64,000 nt of DNA from Amphiscolops sp. MND2022 (lineage: Eukaryota): positions 71,240,001 to 71,304,000 of the forward strand of contig OZ076409.1 in assembly GCA_964187785.1 (NCBI GenBank), written 5' to 3'. Of this stretch, positions 1 through 64,000 are shown piece after piece; the first letter of the stretch is position 1; the number at the start of each line of letters is the position of its first letter. The translations under genes and the position numbers were made by a program. Below the pieces are notes generated by a model. The model searched no databases. It was given only the letters and a program-made list of their open reading frames with translations, and was not told where the DNA came from.

Positions 1-83
1 CAACGCCCCATCGTCCGTGGGCATGCCGAGGCATGCCCTTCGACGACGTATGCCAAATGCCCAGTGCCACGCAGTCTTTCCCC
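1..83 (+). repeat. Partial right end (core and tail) of the preceding unit, same type as the end of unit 84-1366
   Basis: Sequence matches 1284-1366 (caacgccccatcgtccgtgggcatgcc...gcagtctttcccc). Confidence 0.9.
19..38. promoter_or_regulatory. Palindromic 20-mer GGGCATGCCGAGGCATGCCC matching the p53-family response element (representative of 36 copies)
   Basis: 19/20 match to RRRCWWGYYY-RRRCWWGYYY with zero spacer. Binding is not demonstrated. Confidence 0.45.
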
Positions 84-1366
84 GCTAGGTGGCCGTGTCT
101 TTTCGACGTGCTTTTGCATTGAGGAGTGGGTAGGGCCCCGCGACGACCTAGAAGAATTGGATGCTCACCGAAACGTGCAGAATTCTACGAGATCTCATAG
201 TTTGAGCCATACGATTTTTCTGAAATTTGGCATGTGGCCTGGAATTGGTGAGTAGGTAAAACGTGTAGAAAGTAATTTTTCCCAAATTCCACTGTGAGAG
301 GAGATATGGGCAAATAACGGACCCAAAAATGGCAAAAATGCACATTTTTCAACTTTGTCAGCCAATATCTCTTTTCCAGGTGCCCGTAGCGTTCCGCACG
401 TGGACATCAATATTGCTCAGCGCTGTTGGAGGAGTGCGTGGACAAATTTTGGTTTAAATCGGACTTAAACTTGACGAGAAATTAACGGTTTTTTGGGCGT
501 TTCCGGGGTAAATTTTTTAACGGTCCAGCTTATCTTTGCCATTTTTTCGAAAATGTACATGCCTAAAGGCCTCCCCCTGGCCGAATTTACTCCCAGCAAA
601 CCCATTTGGCCCTAAATACGGAGTTTCAGCGTTCCAGCATTCCGGGGCGGAAAGTTGTGGGACTTGGAAAAATTTCAAAATTTTTTCAAAAATTTTTTTC
701 CCGTTTTCCGGGCCCCCAATGAAGGGGAACGAGCCCCCAACCAGTATTTTGAGTGAATTCATGTGGAACGCCCATGTTTGGAGGAGAAAAATGCCGTTTA
801 GAACATCTTTTTATCTTAACTTGACATTGACTTATGACGTTTTGAATGTGATGTTAGGATATATGAAGCATGTTAAAAGTTGAAGTTTTGAGTCTTTATC
901 TCATCGGAAAACCATTGAGATACAAGCAGTTTTGCTAAAAACGATTTTCATTGTAGGTTAGCAGAGTATTAGTACACTTTGATGTCATTTGAGTATATTT
1001 TTCTTCTATATAATAACTGTTTTTATGTATTTATTCCAATTTATCTCATCTTTTAACATCAAGCAGTTGAGTACATTTCATCTCCCTTTCGGGGGAGATG
1101 AGAATGTACTCGCTAAAAACCTAATGCTATGGCGCCAATGTTTGAATGGGAAGTTTTCTATGCTTTGAAAAAAGTTATTTTTAATTACTTGATTTTTTAA
1201 AACAATAATTAACATGAAGTACATTACTTGCTCCTACTACTACCACCATACATCTCTAACGTCAACACGCCCCCTGCTTGCATCAACGCCCCATCGTCCG
1301 TGGGCATGCCGAGGCATGCCCTTCGACGACGTATGCCAAATGCCCAGTGCCACGCAGTCTTTCCCC
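84..1366 (+). mobile_element. Short-class unit, subfamily S1 (1283 bp), putative non-autonomous element
   Basis: Bounded by junctions at 84 and 1367. Shares the aaaggcctccccctggcc...catttggccctaaatacggagtttcagcgttc block and the GAGTACATT hairpin with other short units. Left ~400 bp is distinct. Confidence 0.6.
1069..1111 (+). other. Short-class subterminal hairpin GAGTACATTYCATCYCCC-loop-GGGAGATGAGAATGTACTC (representative)
   Basis: Present in all 8 short units (1069, 16185, 17472, 18748, 20019, 21300, 41295, 44545), starting 298-311 bp before the next junction. Confidence 0.88.
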
Positions 1367-2901
1367 GCTAGGTGCGGGGGGGAAACCCCATCCCTTATCT
1401 TGGAGGATTCGGGTAGGGTCCTGAATCCGAGTTCAGTGCCGCCAGCTCTCAGTAGAAATCTGGGCATTTTTTTGCGATCTCGTGATCTAACCATAGGATT
1501 TTAAAGTTGGAGCGGCCCCCACCAGATTTTCCAAAGTTATTCGCCCCCCACCGGGTTCCAGCGTGATTGAAATATTTTGACGGGGTACACGGGCGACCGT
1601 TAGGGGTCATTTTGGGGGTAAAATTTATAAAAGTTCGCATAACTTTTTTCCTGTTGGTTTAAAACTTTAGGACCCTGCTAAAAGTTTCTTGACCATGTTG
1701 CAGGGGCCCCGGAGGTCCAAACCAAATTTTTCTATCTTGAAGCTATCTCCAAGTACCCCCCCGCCCAAACCGTTATTTTTCCGGAAACGCCGGTTTTTGA
1801 CCCGGAAGGAGTCGTCTGAGCGCGGGGTCGTTAGGTGATGTATTGGGGACGGCCTTGAGACGAAGCGGGGGATATATAGTTTGCCGACCCCAGTTTACCC
1901 CCCGCACGGGAAATGACCGTTATATGAGCGGGAAAAATGCCCCCTCCACGTTTTACCGCTATTTCCGGTGTGAAGGAGTGGGAGTAGCGCGTCGGGTGTT
2001 ATATAACAAAAGTAGGTTTAGACAAGGACCTATCGGAAACATGTAGTTTGGGACCCCCTGGTCCAACCCGTTAGCGGAAAATGGGGCTTCCGCCTCCTTT
2101 TTTTACTGCTAAAACCGTAAAATGGGCATTGAGGGGTAAATATCTCGTGAACGCGTGGAGCAATCGTGTCCATCACTACTACAAGGTTTCATACCCATGA
2201 TATGGTGCCTTCAGGGGGGCAAACAGATTTCCGCTATCTATCACCGTTACCGACTTGGCCCCCCAGCCTAACCGCTATGTGACCGGAAATGTCACTTTTT
2301 GAGCCCAAAGGGTCGGTCCCAGCCGGGGAACGTTAGGTTACTTATTGTAGTACTCAATGAGACGAGTTGGGGGATATAGTTTCAGTCACCCCCCGTTACC
2401 CCTTGGGACCGGAAATGACCGTTATGTGGGTAAAATTGCCATTTTTGTCCTATTTGGAGGGCATTTAGATGCGGAAGGAGTGGTAATAGGTGCTTGGACA
2501 CTATATGATGTAAAAGAGGACGTGATGCGAGCATTCGAAATTAACCGTTATGTTGACCCCTAAGTCCCCCTGGTACCGTAAATGACCGGAAATGGTCTAA
2601 TTTTGTGTTTATTGGGTACAAATGTTTGGTATTTTATGAATTAAAGTACATGGAAGGTGTTTCAAAGGCCTCCAGAAGTGAACATCGTCATGAAACCTTG
2701 TGGGGGGTAACGGTATATAACACCGGAAGTCCAAACCGTTGGTCACAGAATAGGTTTTTTGGTTTCAAAATGTCTTTAGGCGTAGTTTTATGGGTTGAAT
2801 CGTCATAATATCAACTATTACGGACATTTTTCGGAAAAAAAATTTTTTCACATTAGTTTCAGAGACCTCCAATGCTTCAGTCAACATAACCGTTACATTT
2901 T

Positions 2902-2945
2902 GATAGCCTTTCAAGTTGGCCTGGCGTCAACTTGGAAGGGCTATC
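2902..2945 (+). other. Long-class subterminal hairpin GATAGCCTTTCAAGTTGGC-loop-GTCAACTTGGAAGGGCTATC (representative)
   Basis: ~19-bp imperfect stem, nearly invariant in long units, starting ~455 bp before the next junction in the units measured. Confidence 0.85.
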
Positions 2946-3244
2946 CTTCTAAAATCGTTAATCAAGAGTGTTTTTGGGTAGGTATATGTTGCATTAGTAC
3001 CAATTATAGCTTCATCAACAGTTTGCCAACGGCAAAAACGATGTCGTGATAATTCCGTTATAAGAATATTAATTAAAAAATTGTTTACAAAGTTGATTTT
3101 TTTCATTTGAAATGTGTCCTAATGCCACCAAATTGAATAAAATAATAAATGGTATTGACTAAAACTAAATAACATTGAAAAAGAAGATCAACATTTTTAT
3201 TAGGTCTCATTATGGAAGCTGAAACCTCACGTTTTAACTTGATT

Positions 3245-3366
3245 AACGTCAACGCCACATACTTTACATCAACGCCCACCGTCTGTGGGCATGCCGAGGC
3301 ATGCCCTTCGACGACGTATACCAAACAACCTCCATATCTACACCCGATTGCGGTAGCGGCTAGGTG
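3245..3366 (+). other. Representative conserved core (36 copies): two TCAACGCC repeats, palindrome, TTCGACGACGTAT, variable tail, GCTAGGTG
   Basis: The only block conserved in sequence between long and short units. Seen directly at every junction. Confidence 0.92.
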
Positions 3367-6300
3367 CGGGGGGGAAACCCCATCCCTTATCTTGGAGGAT
3401 TCGGGTAGGGTCCTGAATCCGAGTTCAGTGCCGCCAGCTCTCAGTAGAAATCTGGGAAATTTTTTGCGATCTCGTGATCTAACCATAGGATTTTAAAGTT
3501 GGAGCGGCCCCCACCAGATTTTCCAAAGTTATTCGCCCCCCACCGGGTTCCAGCGTGATTGAAATATTTTGTCGGGGTACACGGGCGACCGTTAGGGGTC
3601 ATTTTAGGGGTAAAATTCATATTGGGCCACATAACTTTTTTTCTGTTGATTTAAAACTTTAGGACCCTGCTAAAAGTTTCTTGACCATGTTGCAGGGGCC
3701 CCGGAGGTCCAAACCAAATTTTTCTATCTTGAAGCTATCTCCAAGTACCCCCCCGCCCAAACCGTTATTTTTCCGGAAACGCCGGTTTTTGACCCGGAAG
3801 GAGTCGTCTGAGCGCGGGGTCGTTAGGTGATGTTTTGGGGACGGCCTCGAGACGAAGCGGGGGATATATAGTTTGCCGATCCCAGTTTACCCCCCGCACG
3901 GGAAATGACCGTTATATGAGCGGGAAAAATGCCCCCCTCCACGTTTTACCGCTATTTCCGGTGTGAAGGAGTGGGAGTAGCGCGTCGGGTGTTATATAAC
4001 AAAAGTAGGTTTAGACAAGGACCTATCGAAAACATGTAGTTTGGGACCCCCTGGACCAACCCGTTAGCGAGAAATGGGGCTTCCGCCTCCTTTTTTTACT
4101 GCTAAAACCGTAAAATGGGCATTGAGGGGTAAATATCTCGTGAACGCGTGGAGCAATCGTGTCCATCACTACTACAAGGTTTCATACCCATGATATGGTG
4201 CCTTCAGGGGGGCAAACAGATTTCCGCTATCTATCACCGTTACCGACTTGGCCCCCCAGCCTAACCGCTATGTGACCGGAAATGTCACTTTTTGAGCCCA
4301 AAGGGTCGGTCCCAGACGGGGAACGTTAGGTAACTTATTGTAGTACTCAATGAGACGAGTTGGGGGATATAGTTTCAGTCACCCCCCGTTACCCCTTGGG
4401 ACCGGAAATGACCGTTATGTGGGTAAATTTGCAATTTTTATACTTTTTCAAGTGTATTTAGGTGCGGAAGGAGTGGTAATAGGTGCTTGGACACTATATG
4501 AGGTGAGGGAGGACGTGAGGCGAGCATTCGGAAATAACCGTTATGTTGACCCTAAAGTCCCCCTGGTACCGTAAACGACCGGAAATGGTCAAATTTTGTG
4601 TTTTTAGGGTACAAATGATTAGAATTTTATGGAAAAAAGTACCTGGTCGGTGTTTCAACGGCTTGCAGTAGTGAACATAGTCATGAAACCTTGTGGGGGG
4701 TAACGGTATATAGCACCGGAAGTCCAAACCGTTGGAGACAGGATAGGTATTTTGGTTTTAAAATGCCTATAAGCGTACTTTTGTGGGTTGAATCGTTTCA
4801 ATATCGACTAATTTGGATATTTTTTTGACATTGAAGGTTTTTTCAATAGTTTCAGGGACCTCCAATGCTTCAATCAATATAACCGTTACCTTATGATAGC
4901 CTTTCAAGTTGGCCTGGTGTCAACTTGGAAGGGCTATCCTTCGAAAATCGTAATTCAAGTGTGTTTTTGAGTACGTTTTTATTACTTTAATATCAATTAG
5001 AGCCTAATCATTAGTTTGCCAACGACAAAAACTATGACGTGATGATACCGTTAGTAGAAGAATAGTTAACAATTTGTTGACAAAATTGATTTTTTGCATT
5101 TTAAATGTTTCCTAAATGCCAGGAAAACAATTTATCTAATGAATGGTACTGATTGAACCCAAGTATCATTTGAAAAAAGTTAAACATTGTTTTTTCGTTT
5201 CATTATGGAAGCTGAAACCTCACGTTTTAGGTCACTTAACGTCAACGCCACATACTTTACATCAACGTCCGCCGTCTGTGGGCATGCCGAGGCATGCCCT
5301 TCGACGACGTATACCAATTACATATATATCTACACCCACCCGCGGTAGCAGCTAGGTGCGGGGGGGTAACCCCAATAAATATATTGGAGGATTCGGGTAG
5401 GGTCCTGAATCCGATTTTAACTCTAATAGCTATCGATAGGAAATCTTGCAAAAATTTCGGGATCTCGTGATCTAACCATAGGATTTTAAAGTTGGAGCGG
5501 CCCCCACCAGATTTTCCGAAAATTAGCGCCCCCCACCGGGTTCCATACCCCGGGAAATTTTTTTCTGGCCACACGGGCGACCGTTAGGGGGTCATTTTAG
5601 GGGTAAAATTCATATTGGGCCACATAACTTTTTTTCTGTTGATTTAAAACTTTGGAACCCTGCTAAAAGTTTCTTGACCGTGTTGCAGGGGCCCCGAAGG
5701 TCCAAACCAAATTTTTCTATCTTGAAGCTATCTCCAAGTACCCCCCCGCTCAAACCGTTATTTTTCCGGAAACGCAGGTTTTTGACCCGGAAGGAGTCGT
5801 CTGAGCGCGGGGTCGTTAGGTGATGTATTGGGGACGGCCTTGAGACGAAGTGGGGGACAAGTAGTTTGCCAACCTCAATTTACCCCCCGGACGGGAAATG
5901 ACCGTTATATGAGCGTGAAAAATGCCCCCCTCCACGTTTTACCGCTATTTCCGGTGTGAAGGAGTGGGAGTAGCGCGTCGGGTGTTATATAACAAAAGTA
6001 GGTTTAGACAAGGACCTATCGGAAACATGTAGTTTGGGACACACTGGACCAACCCGTTAGCGGGAAATGGGGCTTCCGCCTCCTTTTTTTAGTGCTAAAA
6101 CCGTAAAATGGGCATTGAGGGGTAAATATCTCGTGAACGCGTGGAGCAATCGTGTCCATCACTACTACAAGGTTTCATACCCATGATATGGTGCCTTCAG
6201 GGGGGCAAACAGATTTCCGCTATCTATCACCGTTACCGACTTGGCCCCCCAGCCTAACCGCTATGTGACCGGAAATGTCACTTTTTGAGCCCAAAGGGTC

Positions 6301-27600: not shown

Positions 27601-30600
27601 ATCCGATTTTAACTCTAATAGCTATCGATAGGAAATCTTGCAAAAATTTCGGGATCTCGTGATCTAACCATAGGATTTTAAAGTTGGAGCGGCCCCCACC
27701 AGATTTTCCAAAGTTATTCGCCCCCCACCGGGTTCCAGCGTGATTGAAATATTTTGTCGGGGTACACGGGCGACCGTTAGGGGTCATTTTGGGGGTAAAA
27801 TTTATAAAAGTTCGCATAACTTTTTTCCTGTTGGTTTAAAACTTTAGGACCCTACTAAAAGTTTCTTGACCATGTTGCAGGGGCCCCGGAGGTCCAAACC
27901 AAATTTTTCTATCTTGAAGCTATCTCCAAGTACCCCCCCGCCCAAACCGTTATCTTTCCGGAAACGCCGGTTTTTGACCCGGAAGGAGTCGTCTGAGCGC
28001 GGGGTCGTTAGGTGATGTATTGGGGACGGCCTTGAGACGAAGCGGGGGATATATAGTTTGCCGACCTCAGTTTACCCCCCGCACGGGAAATGACCGTTAT
28101 ATGAGCGGGAAAAATGCCCCCCTCCACGTTTTACCGCTATTTCCGGTGTGAAGGAGTGGGAGTAGCGCGTCGGGTGTTTTATATCAAAAGTAGGTTTAGA
28201 CAAGGATCTATCGGAAACATGTGATTTGGGACCCCCTGGACCAAGCCGTTAGCGGGAAATGGGGCTTCCGCCTCCTTTTTTTACTGCTAAAACCGTAAAA
28301 TGTGCATTGAGGGGTAAATATCTCGTGAACGCGTGGAGCAATCGTGTCCATCACTACTACAAGGTTTCATACCCATGATATGGTGCCTTCAGGGGGGCAA
28401 ACAGATTTCCGCTATCTATCGCCGTTACCGACTTGGCCCCCCAGCCCAACCGCTATGTGACCGGAAATGTCACTTTTTGAGCCCAAAGGGTCGGTCCCAG
28501 CCGGGGAACGTTAGGTAAGTTATTGTAGTACTCAAGGAGACGAGTTGGGGGATATAGTTTCAGTCAACCCCCGTTACCCCTTGGGACCGGAAATGACCGT
28601 TATGTGGGTAAATTTGCATTTTTTATACTTTTTCAAGTGCATTTATGTGCGGAAGCAGTGGTAATAGGTGCTTGGACACTATATGATGTAATGGAGGTCG
28701 TGAGGAGAGCATTCGGGAATAACCGTTATGTTGACCCCAAAATCCCCCTGGTACCGTTAACGACCGGAAATGGCCAAATTTTGTGTCTATTGGGTACAAA
28801 TGTTTGGTATTTTATGGATAAAAGTACCTGGAAGGTGTTTTAAAGGCCTCCAGAAGTGAACATAGTCATGAAACCTTGTGGGGGGTAACGGTATATAGCA
28901 CCGGAAGTCCAAACCGTTGGTCACAGAATAGGTTTTTTGGTTTCAAAATGTCTTTAGGCATAGTTTTGTGGGTTGAATCGTCATAATATCAACTAATACG
29001 GACTTTTTTTCGGAAATAAAATTTTTTCACATTAGTTTCAGGGACCTCCAATGCTTCAGTCAACATAACCGTTACATTTTGATAGCCTTTCAAGTTGACC
29101 TGGTGTCAACTTGGAAGGGCTATCCTTCTAAAATCGTTAATCAAGAGTGTTTTTGGGTAGGTATATGTTGCATTAGTACCAATTAGAGCTTCATCAACAG
29201 TTTGCCAACGGCAAAAACGATGTCGTGATAATTCCGTTATAAAAATATTAGTTAACAAATTGTTTTCAAAGTTGATTTTTTCCATTAAAAATGTGTCCTA
29301 ATGCCACCAAATTGAATAAAATGGTATTGACTAAAACTAAATAACAATGAAAAAGAAGATCAACATTTTTATTAGGTCTCATTATGGAAGCTGAAACCTC
29401 ACGTTTTAGTTTAATTAACGTCAACGCCACATACTTTACATCAACGCCCACCGTCTGTGGGCATGCCGAGGCATGCCCTTCGACGACGTATACCAAACAA
29501 CCTCCATATCTACACCTTCCGCGGTAGCAGCTAGGTGCGGGGGGGAAACCCCATCCCTTATCTTGGAGGATTCGGGATTGAGGAGAGCATTCGGGAATAA
29601 CCGTTATGTTGACCCCAAAGTCCCCCTGGTACCGTTAACGACCGGAAATGGCCAAATTTTGTGTCTATTGGGTACAAATGTTTGGTATTTTATGGATAAA
29701 AGTACCTGGAAGGTGTTTTAAAGGCCTCCAGAAGTGAACATAGTCATGAAACCTTGTGGGGGGTAACGGTATATAGCACCGGAAGTCCAAACCGTTGGTC
29801 ACAGAATAGGTTTTTTGGTTTCAAAATGTCTTTAGGCATAGTTTTGTGGGTTGAATCGTCATAATATCAACTAATACGGACTTTTTTTCGGAAATAAAAT
29901 TTTTTCACATTAGTTTCAGGGACCTCCAATGCTTCAGTCAACATAACCGTTACATTTTGATAGCCTTTCAAGTTGACCTGGTGTCAACTTGGAAGGGCTA
30001 TCCTTCTAAAATCGTTAATCAAGAGTGTTTTTGGGTAGGTATATGTTGCATTAGTACCAATTAGAGCTTCATCAACAGTTTGCCAACGGCAAAAACGATG
30101 TCGTGATAATTCCGTTATAAAAATATTAGTTAACAAATTGTTTTCAAAGTTGATTTTTTCCATTAAAAATGTGTCCTAATGCCACCAAATTGAATAAAAT
30201 GGTATTGACTAAAACTAAATAACAATGAAAAAGAAGATCAACATTTTTATTAGGTCTCATTATGGAAGCTGAAACCTCACGTTTTAGTTTAATTAACGTC
30301 AACGCCACATACTTTACATCAACGCCCACCGTCTGTGGGCATGCCGAGGCATGCCCTTCGACGACGTATACCAAACAACCTCCATATCTACACCTTCCGC
30401 GGTAGCAGCTAGGTGCGGGGGGGAAACCCCATCCCTTATCTTGGAGGATTCGGGTAGGGTCCTGAATCCGAGTTCAGTGCCGCCAGCTCTCAGTAGAAAT
30501 CTGGGCATTTTTTTGCGATCTCGTGATCTAACCATAGGATTTTAAAGTTGGAGCGGCCCCCACCAGATTTTCCAAAGTTATTCGCCCCCCACCGGGTTCC

Positions 30601-36600: not shown

Positions 36601-39600
36601 TAAAATTCATATTGGGCCACATAACTTTTTTTCTGTTGATTTAAAACTTTGGGACCCTGCTAAAAGTTTCTTGACCGTGTTGCAGGGGCCCCGGAGGTCC
36701 AAACCAAATTTTTCTATCTTGAAGCTATCTCCAAGTACCCCCCCGCCCAAAACGTTATTTTTCCGGAAACGCAGGTTTTTGACCCGGAAGGAGTCGTCGG
36801 AGCGCGGGGTCGTTAGGTGATGTATTGGGGACGGCCTTGAGACGAAGTGGGGGACATGCAGTTTGCCGACCCCAGTTTACCCCCCGGACGGGAAATGACC
36901 GTTATATGAGCGGGAAAAAAGCCCCCCTCCACGTTTTACCGCTATTTCCGGTGTGAAGGAGTGGGAGTAGCGCGTCGGGTGCCATATATCAAAAGTAGGT
37001 TTAAACAAGGACCTATCGGAAACATGTGGTTTGGGACCCCCTGGACCAACCCGTTAGCAGGAAATGGGGCTTCCGGCCCGTTTTTTTACGGTTAAAAACG
37101 GAAAATGGGCATTGAGGGGTAAATATCTCGTGAACGCGTGGAGCTACGGTGTCCATCACTACTTCAAGGTTTCATACCCATGATATGGTGCCTTCAGGGG
37201 GGCAAACAGATTTCCGCTATCTATCACCGTTACGGACTTGGCCCCCAGCCTAACCGTTAAGTGACCGGAAATGTCATATTTTGAGCCCAAAGGGTCGGTC
37301 TCAGCCAGGGAACGTTAGGTAACTTATTGTAGTACTCATTGAGACGAGTTGGGGGACATAGTTTCAGTCACCCCCCGTTACCCCTTGGGACCGGAAATGA
37401 CCGTTATGTGAGTAAAATTGCAATTTTTGTACTTTTTGAAGGGTATTTAGGTGTGGAAGGAGTGGTAATAGGTGCTTGGACACTATATGAGGTAAGGGAG
37501 GACGTGAGGCGAGCATTCGGACATAACCGTTATGTTGACCCTAAAGTCCCCCTTGTACCGTAAACGACCGGAAATGGTCAAATTTTGTATTTTTAGGGTA
37601 CAAATGTTTGGTATTTTATGGAATAAAGTACATGGAAGGTGTTTCAAAGGCATCCAGAAATGAACATAGTCATGAAACCTTGAGGGGGGTAACGGTATAT
37701 AACACCGGAAGTCCAAGCCGTTGGACACAGTATAGGTTTTTGGGTTTTAAAATGCTTATGAACGTACATTTGTGGGTTGAATTGTTCTAATATTGACTAT
37801 TTTCGATATTTTTTGACATTAAAGGTTTTTCCAATAGTTTCAGGGACCTCCAAAGCTTCAATCAACATAACCTTTACATTATGGTAGCCTTTCAAGTTGG
37901 CCTGGTGTCAACTTGGAAGGGCTATCCTTCACAAATCGTATATCAAGTGTGTTTTTGAGTAGGTTTTTATCACTTTAGTATCAATTAGAGCTTAATCATT
38001 AGTTTGCCAACGACAAAAACCATGTCGTGATGATTCCGTTAGTAGAAGAATAGTTAACAACTTGTTGACAAAGTTGATTTTTTGCATTTAAAATGTTTCC
38101 TAAATGCCAGGAAAACGATTTACGTTATAAATGGTACTGATTGACCCAAATAACAGTTAAAAAAAAGTTAAACATTATTTTTTCGTTTCATTATAGAAGC
38201 TGAAACCTCACGTTTTAACTTAATTAACGTCAACGCCACATACTTTACATCAACGCCCACCGTCCGTAGGCATGCCGAGGCATGCCTTTCGACGACGTAT
38301 ACCAAAATCCAATATATCTACACCCACCCGCGGTAGCAGCTAGGTGCGGGGGGAAACCCCAACAAAATTTTTGGAGGATTCGGGTAGGGTCCTGAATCCG
38401 AGTTCAGTGCTGCCAGCTTTCGTTAAGAAAATTTGGATAGGATTCGGGATCTCGTGATCTAACCATAGGATTTTAAAGTTGGAGCGGCCCCCACCAGATT
38501 TTCCGAAAATTAGCGCCCCCCACCGGGTTCCATACCCCGGAAAATTTTTTTCTGGCCACACGGGCGACCGTTAGGGGGTCATTTTAGGGGTAAAATTCAT
38601 ATTGGGCCACATAACTTTTTTTCTGTTGATTTAAAACTTTGGGACCCTGCTAAAAGTTTCTTGACCGTGTTGCAAGGGCTCCGGAGGTCCAAACCAAATT
38701 TTTCTATCTTGAAGCTATCTCCAAGTACCCCCCGCCCAAAACGTTATTTTTCCGGAAACGCAGGTTTTTGACCCGGAAGGAGTCGTCGGAGCGCGGGGTC
38801 GTTAGGTGATGTATTGGGGACGGCATTGAGACGAAGTGGGGGACATGCAGTTTGCCAACCCCAGTTTACCCCCCGGACGGGAAATGACCGTTATATGAGC
38901 GGCAAAAATGTCCCCCTCCACGTTTTACCGCTATTTCCGGTGTGAAGGAATGGGAGTAGCGCGTCGGGTGCCATATATCAAAAGTAGGTTTAGACAAGGA
39001 TCTATCGGAAACATGTGGTTTGGGACCCCCTAGACCAACCCGTTAGCAGGAAATGGGGCTTCCGGCCCGTTTTTTTACGGTTAAAAACGGAAAATGGGCA
39101 TTGAGGGGTAAATATCTCGTGAACGCGTGGAGCTACGGTGTCCTTCACTACTTCAAGGTTTCATACCCATGATATGGTGCCTTCAGGGGGGCAAACAGAT
39201 TTCCGCTATCTATCACCGTTACGGACTTGGCCCCCCAGCCTAACCGTTAAGTGACCGGAAATGTCATATTTTGAGCCCAAAGGGTCGGTCCCAGCCAGGG
39301 AACGTTAGGTAACTTATTGTAGTACTCATTGAGACGAGTTGGGGGACATAGTTTCAGTCACCCCCCGTTACCCCTTGGGACCGGAAATGACCGTTATGTG
39401 AGTAAATTTGCCATTTTTGTCCTATTTGAAGGGCATTTAGACGCGGAAGGAGTGGTAACAGGTGCTTGGACACTATATGAGGTAAGGGAGGACGTGAGGC
39501 GAGCATTCGGACATAACCGTTATGTTGACCCTAAAGTCCCCCTGGTACCGTAAACGACCGGAAATGGTCAAATTTTGTATTTTTAGGGTACAAATGTTTG

Positions 39601-62675: not shown

Positions 62676-64000
62676 GCTAGGTGGATGTTATTTTATAATA
62701 ATTAAAGTGTTTTTTCCGGAGTTTGTGGCTTTGGAAAAAACAGAAGTCGAGAAATTTGGCACTCCAGGCTGATCCTGTCTAGTCCAAAATATACTATCAA
62801 AAATGACCCATTTTTCTCCGATCTCGAAACCCAACCGTAGGATTTGGCTGAAAATTTGCATGTGGCTCCAAGTCAATGAGTGATGAAAAAGTGTAGAAGT
62901 GACTTTTCCTGGGAAAATTGTTTTTGTTGCACTTTTTGCGCAATTTTTGGCCGATTGTTGCGTTTTTTATGTCACTTTCGACTTTTCAGGCAAAAAACTC
63001 ATGGATGCTTTGATCCTAGCGCATCAAGTGTTACGACCAAAAAGTTACAACATGTTCTTTTACGTATGCTGAGAAAATTTGGTCGCAATCGTATTACCCC
63101 CCACTGAGATAGAGGGGAACTTCCGGTGGATTTTAGCACCCTGAAAACGAGGACCTCCTCAATTTCAGCAGGAAGCGGTAGTTTTAGCGTTCTCATACCC
63201 TGCTGACGTTTTGTTGGGCATATTGAGTTAGTCATGATATCATGTGTTCAGTTCACCCCCATCACCCCCTGGACCGGAAATGAACTTTTTGTGCACTATC
63301 ATACCGGAAGTCTCCAATTTCAACGTTAAGCAGTCCTTGTACGAGCAACTACCAGGACATCAAAATTGAAGTACCACCTAAAGTCAATGCAGTGACTACG
63401 TGTTGTCCAGTCATAGGTTCCGCAATGACCGGAAATGGGGTCAAATCCCCCTTTTTTGTTGCTTTTTAACAATTTGACTAGTGTTTGGTCCACATTCAAG
63501 TCACATAATTCAATTGAACCAGTGTGAGCATAAACTGTATGTTCACTGCGTAGACGTAACTGACACTGACAGGTACCGGAAGTAACCCCCCCATAACCGG
63601 AAGTTGTCATTTTTGACCGGAAATGGTCCAAAATGTAGCGTAAAATCAGTTTTTCACTGCTTTTTGAAGTCAATTTAATTCATTTTCAATATTGGCGAGC
63701 TTGTATTCAGGTTCGTTTTTGTTACCCGTGCACTTTGCAACAAATATACATCTGTAAAGTTTTCTCCATAATATCTTCGGATAGAGAAATAACGTGTTTT
63801 CGGGACTTTTTTCAAAAATATTACACTATATCTGTCATTTTTACCCAAAGTTTTTCAACAGTACAACCACAGTGGTTAGTCTCTGCCCAAATGTATGCCT
63901 AACAAAACTATTTGGCCCATTGACCTCAGTTTGAGCGTTCCAGCTTTGCGTGGTCATAAGCTAAGGGACTTGAAAAATTTTCAAACTTTTTCAAAAAAAC
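62676..64000 (+). mobile_element. Third unit type, truncated by the window edge
   Basis: Starts GCTAGGTGGATG. Has gatctcgaaacccaaccgtaggatttggctgaaaattt (~62820), many ACCGGAART motifs, and a diverged copy of the short-class central block at ~63905-64000. Confidence 0.6.

Follow-up and report, generated by a model that had tools for sequence, protein, structure and literature searches.

According to the available parts of several accounts, elements of the HUH and Crypton kinds usually carry palindromes at their termini along with short terminal direct repeats (PMC3212892, PMC9977147, PMC10288648, PMC4067079, PMC5876387), and the text available on Helitron circles describes precise head-to-tail junctions and reports tandem arrays (PMC5876387). 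Binding sites for p53 in transposons are known mostly as passengers that were later used by vertebrate genes. The zebrafish element EnSpm-N6_DR likewise combines a consensus p53 site with a multicopy, non-autonomous element, and the accessible part of that study also names p53 sites in L1, Alu, and LTR sequences (PMC3485254). These sites are dispersed and, as far as that text goes, tested in cells, whereas those described here are an invariant end part within a dense mixed array and their binding is predicted. Mobile elements with p53 sites are known as such; what is new is the placement of the site in the frozen end signal of a mixed array that is shuffled at its junctions. A literature search returned no account that describes this family or places a p53 site in an element end of this kind, though Repbase, Dfam, or supplements may catalogue the family. 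Searches of the literature for exact 18-19-base motifs gave no match, those combining p53, transposon, invertebrate, and tandem array found nothing, and those combining Helitron and p53 brought irrelevant matches only.

The DNA analyzed here, a stretch of 64 kb that we refer to as the window, is over its whole length a one-directional array of non-coding units (at least 64 kb) in the order BAAAAAAABBBBBAAAAaAAAAABABAAAAAAAAAC (Table 1). The units differ from each other by 1-40%, which rules out an assembly artefact. Beyond the end region, blastn produced no alignment between the bodies of types A and B, while a module common to the first 140 bases of A, B, and C indicates that the bodies are old relatives. 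The window contains 50 open reading frames of at least 100 codons (stop to stop), of which the longest has 163, i.e., no long one. No Rfam family reached its gathering score in the 64 kb and no tRNA or rRNA gene was found in the window; in the first 3.5 kb, Rfam gave weak matches to bacterial sRNAs alone (E 0.8-10), and a search of the window for short tandem repeats brought up nothing relevant. The observed/expected ratio of CpG is 0.97 with no sign of CpG hypermutation, which would speak against a vertebrate or plant repeat under heavy methylation and rules out that the p53-like site described below was born from CpG decay. Unit 18, which is 99.9% identical to unit 17 over 834 bases and shares its initial 42 bases with unit 19, is a local tandem duplication (878 bp) that spans a junction and broke inside the left-end hairpin H1. 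As a side observation, this break may mark H1 as a break or template-switch point.

Outside the window, a single relative (L018, 1172 bases) was found among 13 metagenome matches and is ca. 70% identical to type B. It carries the rarer A...T variant of the palindrome described below, shares a 51-base identity with the A...T cores of the window, and reads CGAG instead of CTAG before the GTG at its junction. It diverges no more than the B units of the window do among themselves, and it may therefore come from the same species. Matches to flank-only patterns, i.e., seven viral loci and 12 of the 13 metagenome loci, were dismissed as chance. Other viral scans gave no match for three patterns and six and eight unrelated loci for two others, one GTDB scan had no match and another five chance 19-mers, and blastn of bases 1-3400 against phages and plasmids found no match. 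A search of sequencing runs retrieved one run with a small share (0.18), in which 14 contigs of low depth partly cover bases 1-3400, and there were no RNA runs among the sequencing-run matches listed.

Table 1. Features of the array with their positions in the window. A slash within CTAG/GTG marks the unit boundary.
Feature	Position	Strand	Remarks
36-bp frozen block, CGTCYGT-palindrome-TTCGACGAC	12..47	+	no variation at 33/36 positions (37 copies); stem can be lengthened by the outer CGTC/GACG
20-bp double palindrome, two GGCATGCC at 10-bp period	19..38	+	predicted logKd -7.45; first of 36
Unit junction CTAG/GTG	85..91	+	first of 36
Type B unit	89..1371	+	one of 8; 1270-1288 bp; mean pairwise identity 72%
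Long internal hairpin of type B	1069..1111	+	ca. 265 bases before unit end; 8/8 B units and L018
Type A unit	1372..3363	+	one of 26; 1967-1996 bp; mean pairwise identity 89%; degenerate internal repeat, peak at ca. 500 bases
Left-end hairpin H1 around GGG(T/G)AGGG(T/C/G)CC	1405..1428	+	37-40 bases after junction
Left-end module common to A, B, C, and L018	1476..1510	+	from alignment of 11 unit starts
Long internal hairpin of type A	2902..2945	+	ca. 460 bases before unit end
Two short direct repeats, TCAACG-type	3243..3276	+	18-20 bases apart; just upstream of frozen block
Short unit 18	29535..30412	+	3' part of unit 17 and first 42 bases of unit 19
A...T variant copies, AGGCATGCCGAGGCATGCCT	36275, 38268, 54676, 56650		
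A...T variant core	38268..38287	+	body 99.6% identical to a unit with G...C core
Type C unit, cut by window end	62681..64000	+	without H1; B-like module resumes after ca. 1200 bases

An earlier note on this DNA had claimed a near-perfect p53-family response element in each unit, and this claim is borne out. Scanning the 64-kb window for two RRRCWWGYYY half-sites with one mismatch yields 36 matches, the first at 19-38, with exactly one palindrome in each of the 36 units. They comprise 32 copies of GGGCATGCCGAGGCATGCCC (the G...C variant) and four copies of the A...T variant, and every copy matches the p53 consensus at 19 of 20 positions with a spacer of 0 (0-13 in the definition of a p53-family element), the sole mismatch being a G at position 10. 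Shuffled versions of the window contained a mean of 0.13 and a maximum of one match (100 shuffles), a comparison that is too favorable, given that a single ancestor gave rise to all 36 copies. The weight-matrix scan that the note had named as a check points the same way: by the human p53 matrix of Veprintsev and Fersht (PMC2275157, in the part available), which may not be that of the host, the predicted logKd is -7.45 for the G...C and -7.35 for the A...T variant. Both are tighter than the p21 site (-7.11; the same source gives -7.46 for p53R2, as far as its text is available), and the runner-up anywhere in the window scores -6.44. The palindrome is identical to the tightest human p53 sequence at 18 of 20 positions, and human p53 would probably bind it in vitro.

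How much of this likeness follows from palindromy was assessed by comparison with artificial sequences. Given a perfect 9-bp hairpin, a 19/20 match to the p53 consensus arises in ca. 1 in 2,700-3,900 cases (44-70% GC), and a logKd of -7.35 or lower is found in ca. 1 in 20,000 random perfect 9-bp hairpins (400,000 draws each at 50% and 70% GC). Among doubled self-complementary 8-mers with a 10-bp period, 55 of 16,384 (1 in 300) reach -7.35, and the palindrome indeed has a four-quarter-site symmetry for which a plain hairpin has no need. The p53 likeness exceeds mere palindromy, yet is far less remote if a short palindrome was doubled. Sites with a logKd of -7.32 to -7.61 are also present in six unrelated GC-rich viral contigs, and the motif alone therefore proves nothing. 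Separately, palindromes matching the p53 consensus at 20/20 positions were seen at 3001-3020 of four GC-rich viral contigs unrelated to the array (L021, L024, L025, and L026) and taken as chance.

The palindrome lies at the center of a 36-bp block that is frozen across 37 copies, i.e., the 36 in the window and L018 as an outside relative. Invariant positions make up 18/20 of the palindrome and 15/16 of the flanks of the block, but 2/10 just upstream and 4/9 just downstream. The CATG cores are fixed and the two varying positions (1 and 20) are p53-neutral in these 37 copies, of which one relative only comes from outside. However, of the 10 positions that are neutral for p53 (transition cost of at most 0.05 log units), eight never vary in the 37 copies, and position 10 always has its non-consensus G, even though the human matrix predicts better p53 binding with C or T. 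Positions 1 and 20 change jointly (32 G-C, five A-T, and no intermediates), and the single-change forms, none of which is present among the 37 copies, would score -7.40 and be better for p53 than the double change. This joint change fits pairing or symmetric repair but probably goes back to one event; in the fold of 15 cores, one of the 12 pairs shows a two-sided change. Since one A...T core sits on a body almost identical to that of a unit with a G...C core (Table 1), the core moved as a short block, and conversion helps to freeze the block. Part of its invariance therefore need not be selection, and conversion by itself could freeze it.

The other hairpins of the units behave differently. 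H1 is found in 34 of the 36 units and in L018 (917-938) with a conserved G-rich top and stems that are lineage-specific yet still paired, and three of its six consensus pairs show two-sided changes (nine variants). Other hairpins thus alter their sequence and still pair, whereas the sequence of the block stays unchanged, and this contrast suggests a protein that reads the block in a base-specific manner. Stem mismatches outside the palindrome, read on the + strand, are G-T in 25 and A-C in two cases among distinct variants, an excess which hints at the + strand as the folded strand, with counts that are not independent. The earlier note had gone on to suggest that the array is a p53-family binding platform. 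What stands of this idea is the strong predicted site with its four-quarter-site symmetry, while p53 as the keeper of the site does not agree with the fixed neutral positions, G10, and flanks. The alternatives that the note itself had mentioned, i.e., a hairpin structure or recognition by a protein of the element itself, are a better fit to the conservation pattern.

The second conspicuous feature is the junction. The heptamer CTAGGTG occurs 36 times on the + strand and never on the - strand, each time 43-58 bases after the palindrome and without helical phasing of this distance; CTAG ends all 35 complete units, and GTG starts all 36. For the 21 pairs of neighboring A units, r2 across the junction is 0.056 vs. 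a permutation null of 0.050 +/- 0.018 (p 0.31), while it is 0.192 across the palindrome (a value reached by none of 300 permutations) and 0.29 over a comparable downstream span. This persistence of linkage across the palindrome rules out crossover at its center in the manner of a serine recombinase. At the eight switches of body type, the segment before CTAG follows the upstream body: it is of A type in 4/4 switches from A to B or C and of no A type in 3/4 switches from B to A, with the remaining one ambiguous. Linkage and switches therefore indicate that exchange is focused on the 7-base junction, although the shared 36-bp block is longer, offers more homology, and would be favored by ordinary homologous recombination. 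Linkage is also close to null across the conserved middle of type A, and ordinary recombination therefore acts too. Neighboring units are slightly more alike than expected by chance (0.905 vs. 0.889, p 0.019), and type B units are clustered (p 0.029). The second zone of lost linkage covers bases ca. 800-1150 of type A (window ca. 2170-2520 in unit 2), which is its best-conserved part, with left and right halves that recombine freely.

We give a probability of about 0.5 to the reading that the palindrome is the center of a cis-signal at the right end of a mobile cassette that has no genes, targets itself, and is joined by a helper enzyme at existing junctions. A helper element elsewhere would supply the strand-transfer enzyme that cuts and joins at CTAG/GTG. 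Our first choice would be a rolling-circle HUH enzyme, i.e., a Helitron-like transposase acting on the + strand, because of the CTAG end, the + strand hairpins, the precise head-to-tail junctions of Helitron circles, and the reported tandem arrays. HUH enzymes such as plasmid relaxases can recombine two copies of their nick site. A Crypton-like tyrosine recombinase with (CT)AGGTG as shared core would come second because of the short terminal direct repeats and the likeness to a CACCG end and CAYCG target. In either case, new or excised copies would enter existing junctions and give rise to a mixed array. The machinery or one of its cofactors would read the block base by base, recognizing in it a doubled symmetric site and occasionally a hairpin, and short conversion tracts would homogenize it further.

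The layout of the array, i.e., units of 1.3-2 kb in a single orientation and near-random order, supports this cassette reading, and we infer the mobility of the units from linkage alone. The 64-kb window yielded neither a helper nor a gene for a transposase, and empty sites and dispersed copies were likewise not found. Counting against the cassette reading, the p53 score is hard to ascribe to chance at the rates given above for random hairpins and for doubled palindromes. If the reading holds, p53-family binding may well not be what mainly keeps the palindrome, at odds that we would call even.

Among known elements, canonical Helitrons (PMC5876387, PMC4067079, PMC12001565, as far as their text is available) are alike in their asymmetric ends, CTAG 3' end, subterminal palindrome, lack of terminal inverted repeats (TIRs), and head-to-tail junctions. 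However, they begin with 5' TC and target the site between A and T, whereas all 36 units here start with GTG and have no such target. The Helitron 3' end CTRR is matched by the CTAG of all 35 complete units but not by the CGAG of L018, and the Helitron palindrome of 16-20 nt is described as lying ca. 11 bases before the 3' end, much closer than the palindrome here. The GTG start, the palindrome's distance from the end, and the CGAG of L018 count against a Helitron-type end. In contrast to Helitron tandem arrays as described in the available text, neighbors in this array are not identical copies. Partial resemblance is seen to Xenopus Helitron arrays of 2-7 copies (PMC12001565, part available) and to Paramecium Helitrons in telomeric repeats (PMC13085455, part available). 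Elements of the Helentron, HINE, and DINE-1 kind (PMC4067079, PMC7492417, in the parts available) are alike in having hairpins near both ends and degenerate internal repeats, and the palindromic motif of mite HINEs at 38-60 bases from the 3' end is similarly placed. Yet their 11-15 bp subterminal inverted repeats have no equivalent here, where the longest exact inverted match between the first 30 and last 120 bases is at most seven bases in all 35 units, and the junction CTAG/GTG differs from their TT target and T-rich termini. Type A shows a degenerate internal duplication at ca. 500 bases (3 x 167) with repeated CCGGAA(A/G) motifs (window 1757-2590), and 166-bp repeats are reported in accessible text on Helitron2-type elements (PMC12001565, PMC7492417), which would be a likeness in length.

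Cryptons (PMC3212892, PMC9977147, parts available) are likewise free of TIRs and have a short direct repeat at both ends that serves as recombination core, e.g., CryptonF-1_cRei, which ends in CACCG and targets CAYCG according to the available text (PMC9977147), while the core here is CACCT on the - strand. AGGTG is found at every junction including that of L018, as a Crypton-like terminal direct repeat of 4-6 bp that is indistinguishable from a plain head-to-tail join in a tandem array. Pairing around the junction is short and inconsistent, and Crypton-like inverted arms of 11-13 bp around a core of 6-8 bp are loosely present. The window differs from Cryptons in that no recombinase gene was seen in it, and the available parts of the two Crypton papers (PMC3212892, PMC9977147) make no mention of long mixed self-targeted arrays. 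Replitrons (PMC10288648, part available) are alike in short terminal direct repeats and a right-end hairpin, though the array has no fuzzy ends or variable duplications, and KolobokP multimers (PMC9587614, part available) share a terminal part as well, which is a terminal repeat of 450-660 bp compared to ca. 100 shared bases here. The units work like a self-targeting Helitron- or Crypton-type cassette but are assigned to neither. Even without p53, a mixed array with exchange at one 7-base junction and with ends unlike those of Helitrons and Helentrons would represent an element type whose enzyme merits finding.

The reading of the palindrome as an end signal is compatible with p53 binding, and in an animal host such binding may occur whatever selection keeps the site. 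It is possible, though we hold it only tentatively, that a selected p53-family response element is embedded in the end signal and that a host p53/p63-like protein binds up to 36 or more sites of the array. The element could then rely on this binding to tie helper transcription, or its own mobilization, to DNA damage or the germline; alternatively, the host could exploit it to silence the array. The predicted logKd of both variants in relation to the p21 and p53R2 sites would fit this idea, as would the zero spacer, the CATG in both halves, the 10-bp period, and a consensus that is kept in both variants and in L018. A junction distance without helical phasing is what an activator site may show, functional p53 elements are described for a zebrafish non-autonomous DNA transposon in the available part of PMC3485254, and p53-family genes go back to placozoans and choanoflagellates (PMC8901663, part available). 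On the other hand, the invariant positions are not those that p53 binding would single out, G10 is fixed despite being a sub-optimal base, the human p53 matrix used for scoring may not be the host's, and equal scores (-7.32 to -7.61) occur in the six viral contigs.

We are more doubtful about a combined version in which the units would be undescribed gene-less cassettes that insert into their own junctions with a near-optimal, selected p53-family site in the end signal, so that a genome-guardian protein of the host licenses or blocks strand transfer or transcription of the next unit and the array forms a dense binding platform. If true, the element would depend on, or be policed through, a p53-family protein at a step of its movement, and the array would allow a compact test of the long-standing view that p53-family proteins originally served to protect the germline from mobile DNA.

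Unlikely in our view is a complex satellite, i.e., divergent monomers with a protein-binding box at the junction that are shaped by illegitimate or unequal recombination, have a heterochromatic or centromeric role, and are not currently mobile. Such a satellite would be consistent with tandem units that are non-coding over at least 64 kb, with the recombination seen in the middle of type A where it is conserved, with the local duplication, and with short conversion tracts, and the available text of PMC3694981 describes satellites of nematodes whose monomers have conserved boxes where they join. However, exchange concentrates at the 7-bp junction and not at the 36-bp box with more homology, the units have asymmetric ends and covarying hairpins at fixed places, and the box is unlike the CENP-B box (judged by eye against its consensus).

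Less likely still, even when considered together, are two readings based on transcription. In one, the unit tail with its CRE-like motif, TCAACG repeats, and p53-like site would be a promoter that starts transcripts from the junction, and the downstream unit would be copied via RNA and inserted at the junction behind a promoter as in HeT-A arrays; in the other, the units would be repeats resembling polymerase I spacer promoters. The RNA route agrees with the G-T hairpins of the + strand and with boxes that are conserved but differ in their distance to a fixed point behind them, but there is no poly(A) or repeat tail and no 5' truncation in 36 units, and the window has no Rfam family at gathering score, tRNA, or rRNA gene. 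A spliced-leader or snRNA array was ruled out because the stretch preceding AG/GT is the variable part, and an LTR/TRIM array because there is no TG...CA and no primer site was seen.

Some smaller motifs of the units are worth recording. A CRE-like motif, TAACGTCA, lies ca. 40 bases before the palindrome in most units (window 3244-3251 and equivalents) and is absent from cores 11 and 14 and from L018. Inside type B, a 19-bp motif is invariant (window 602-620 and equivalents), and it is also found in L018 (138-156) and loosely in type C. Finally, the H1 loop (T/G)AGGGT resembles the (T/G)AGGT of the junction, and both are permutations of common telomere repeats.
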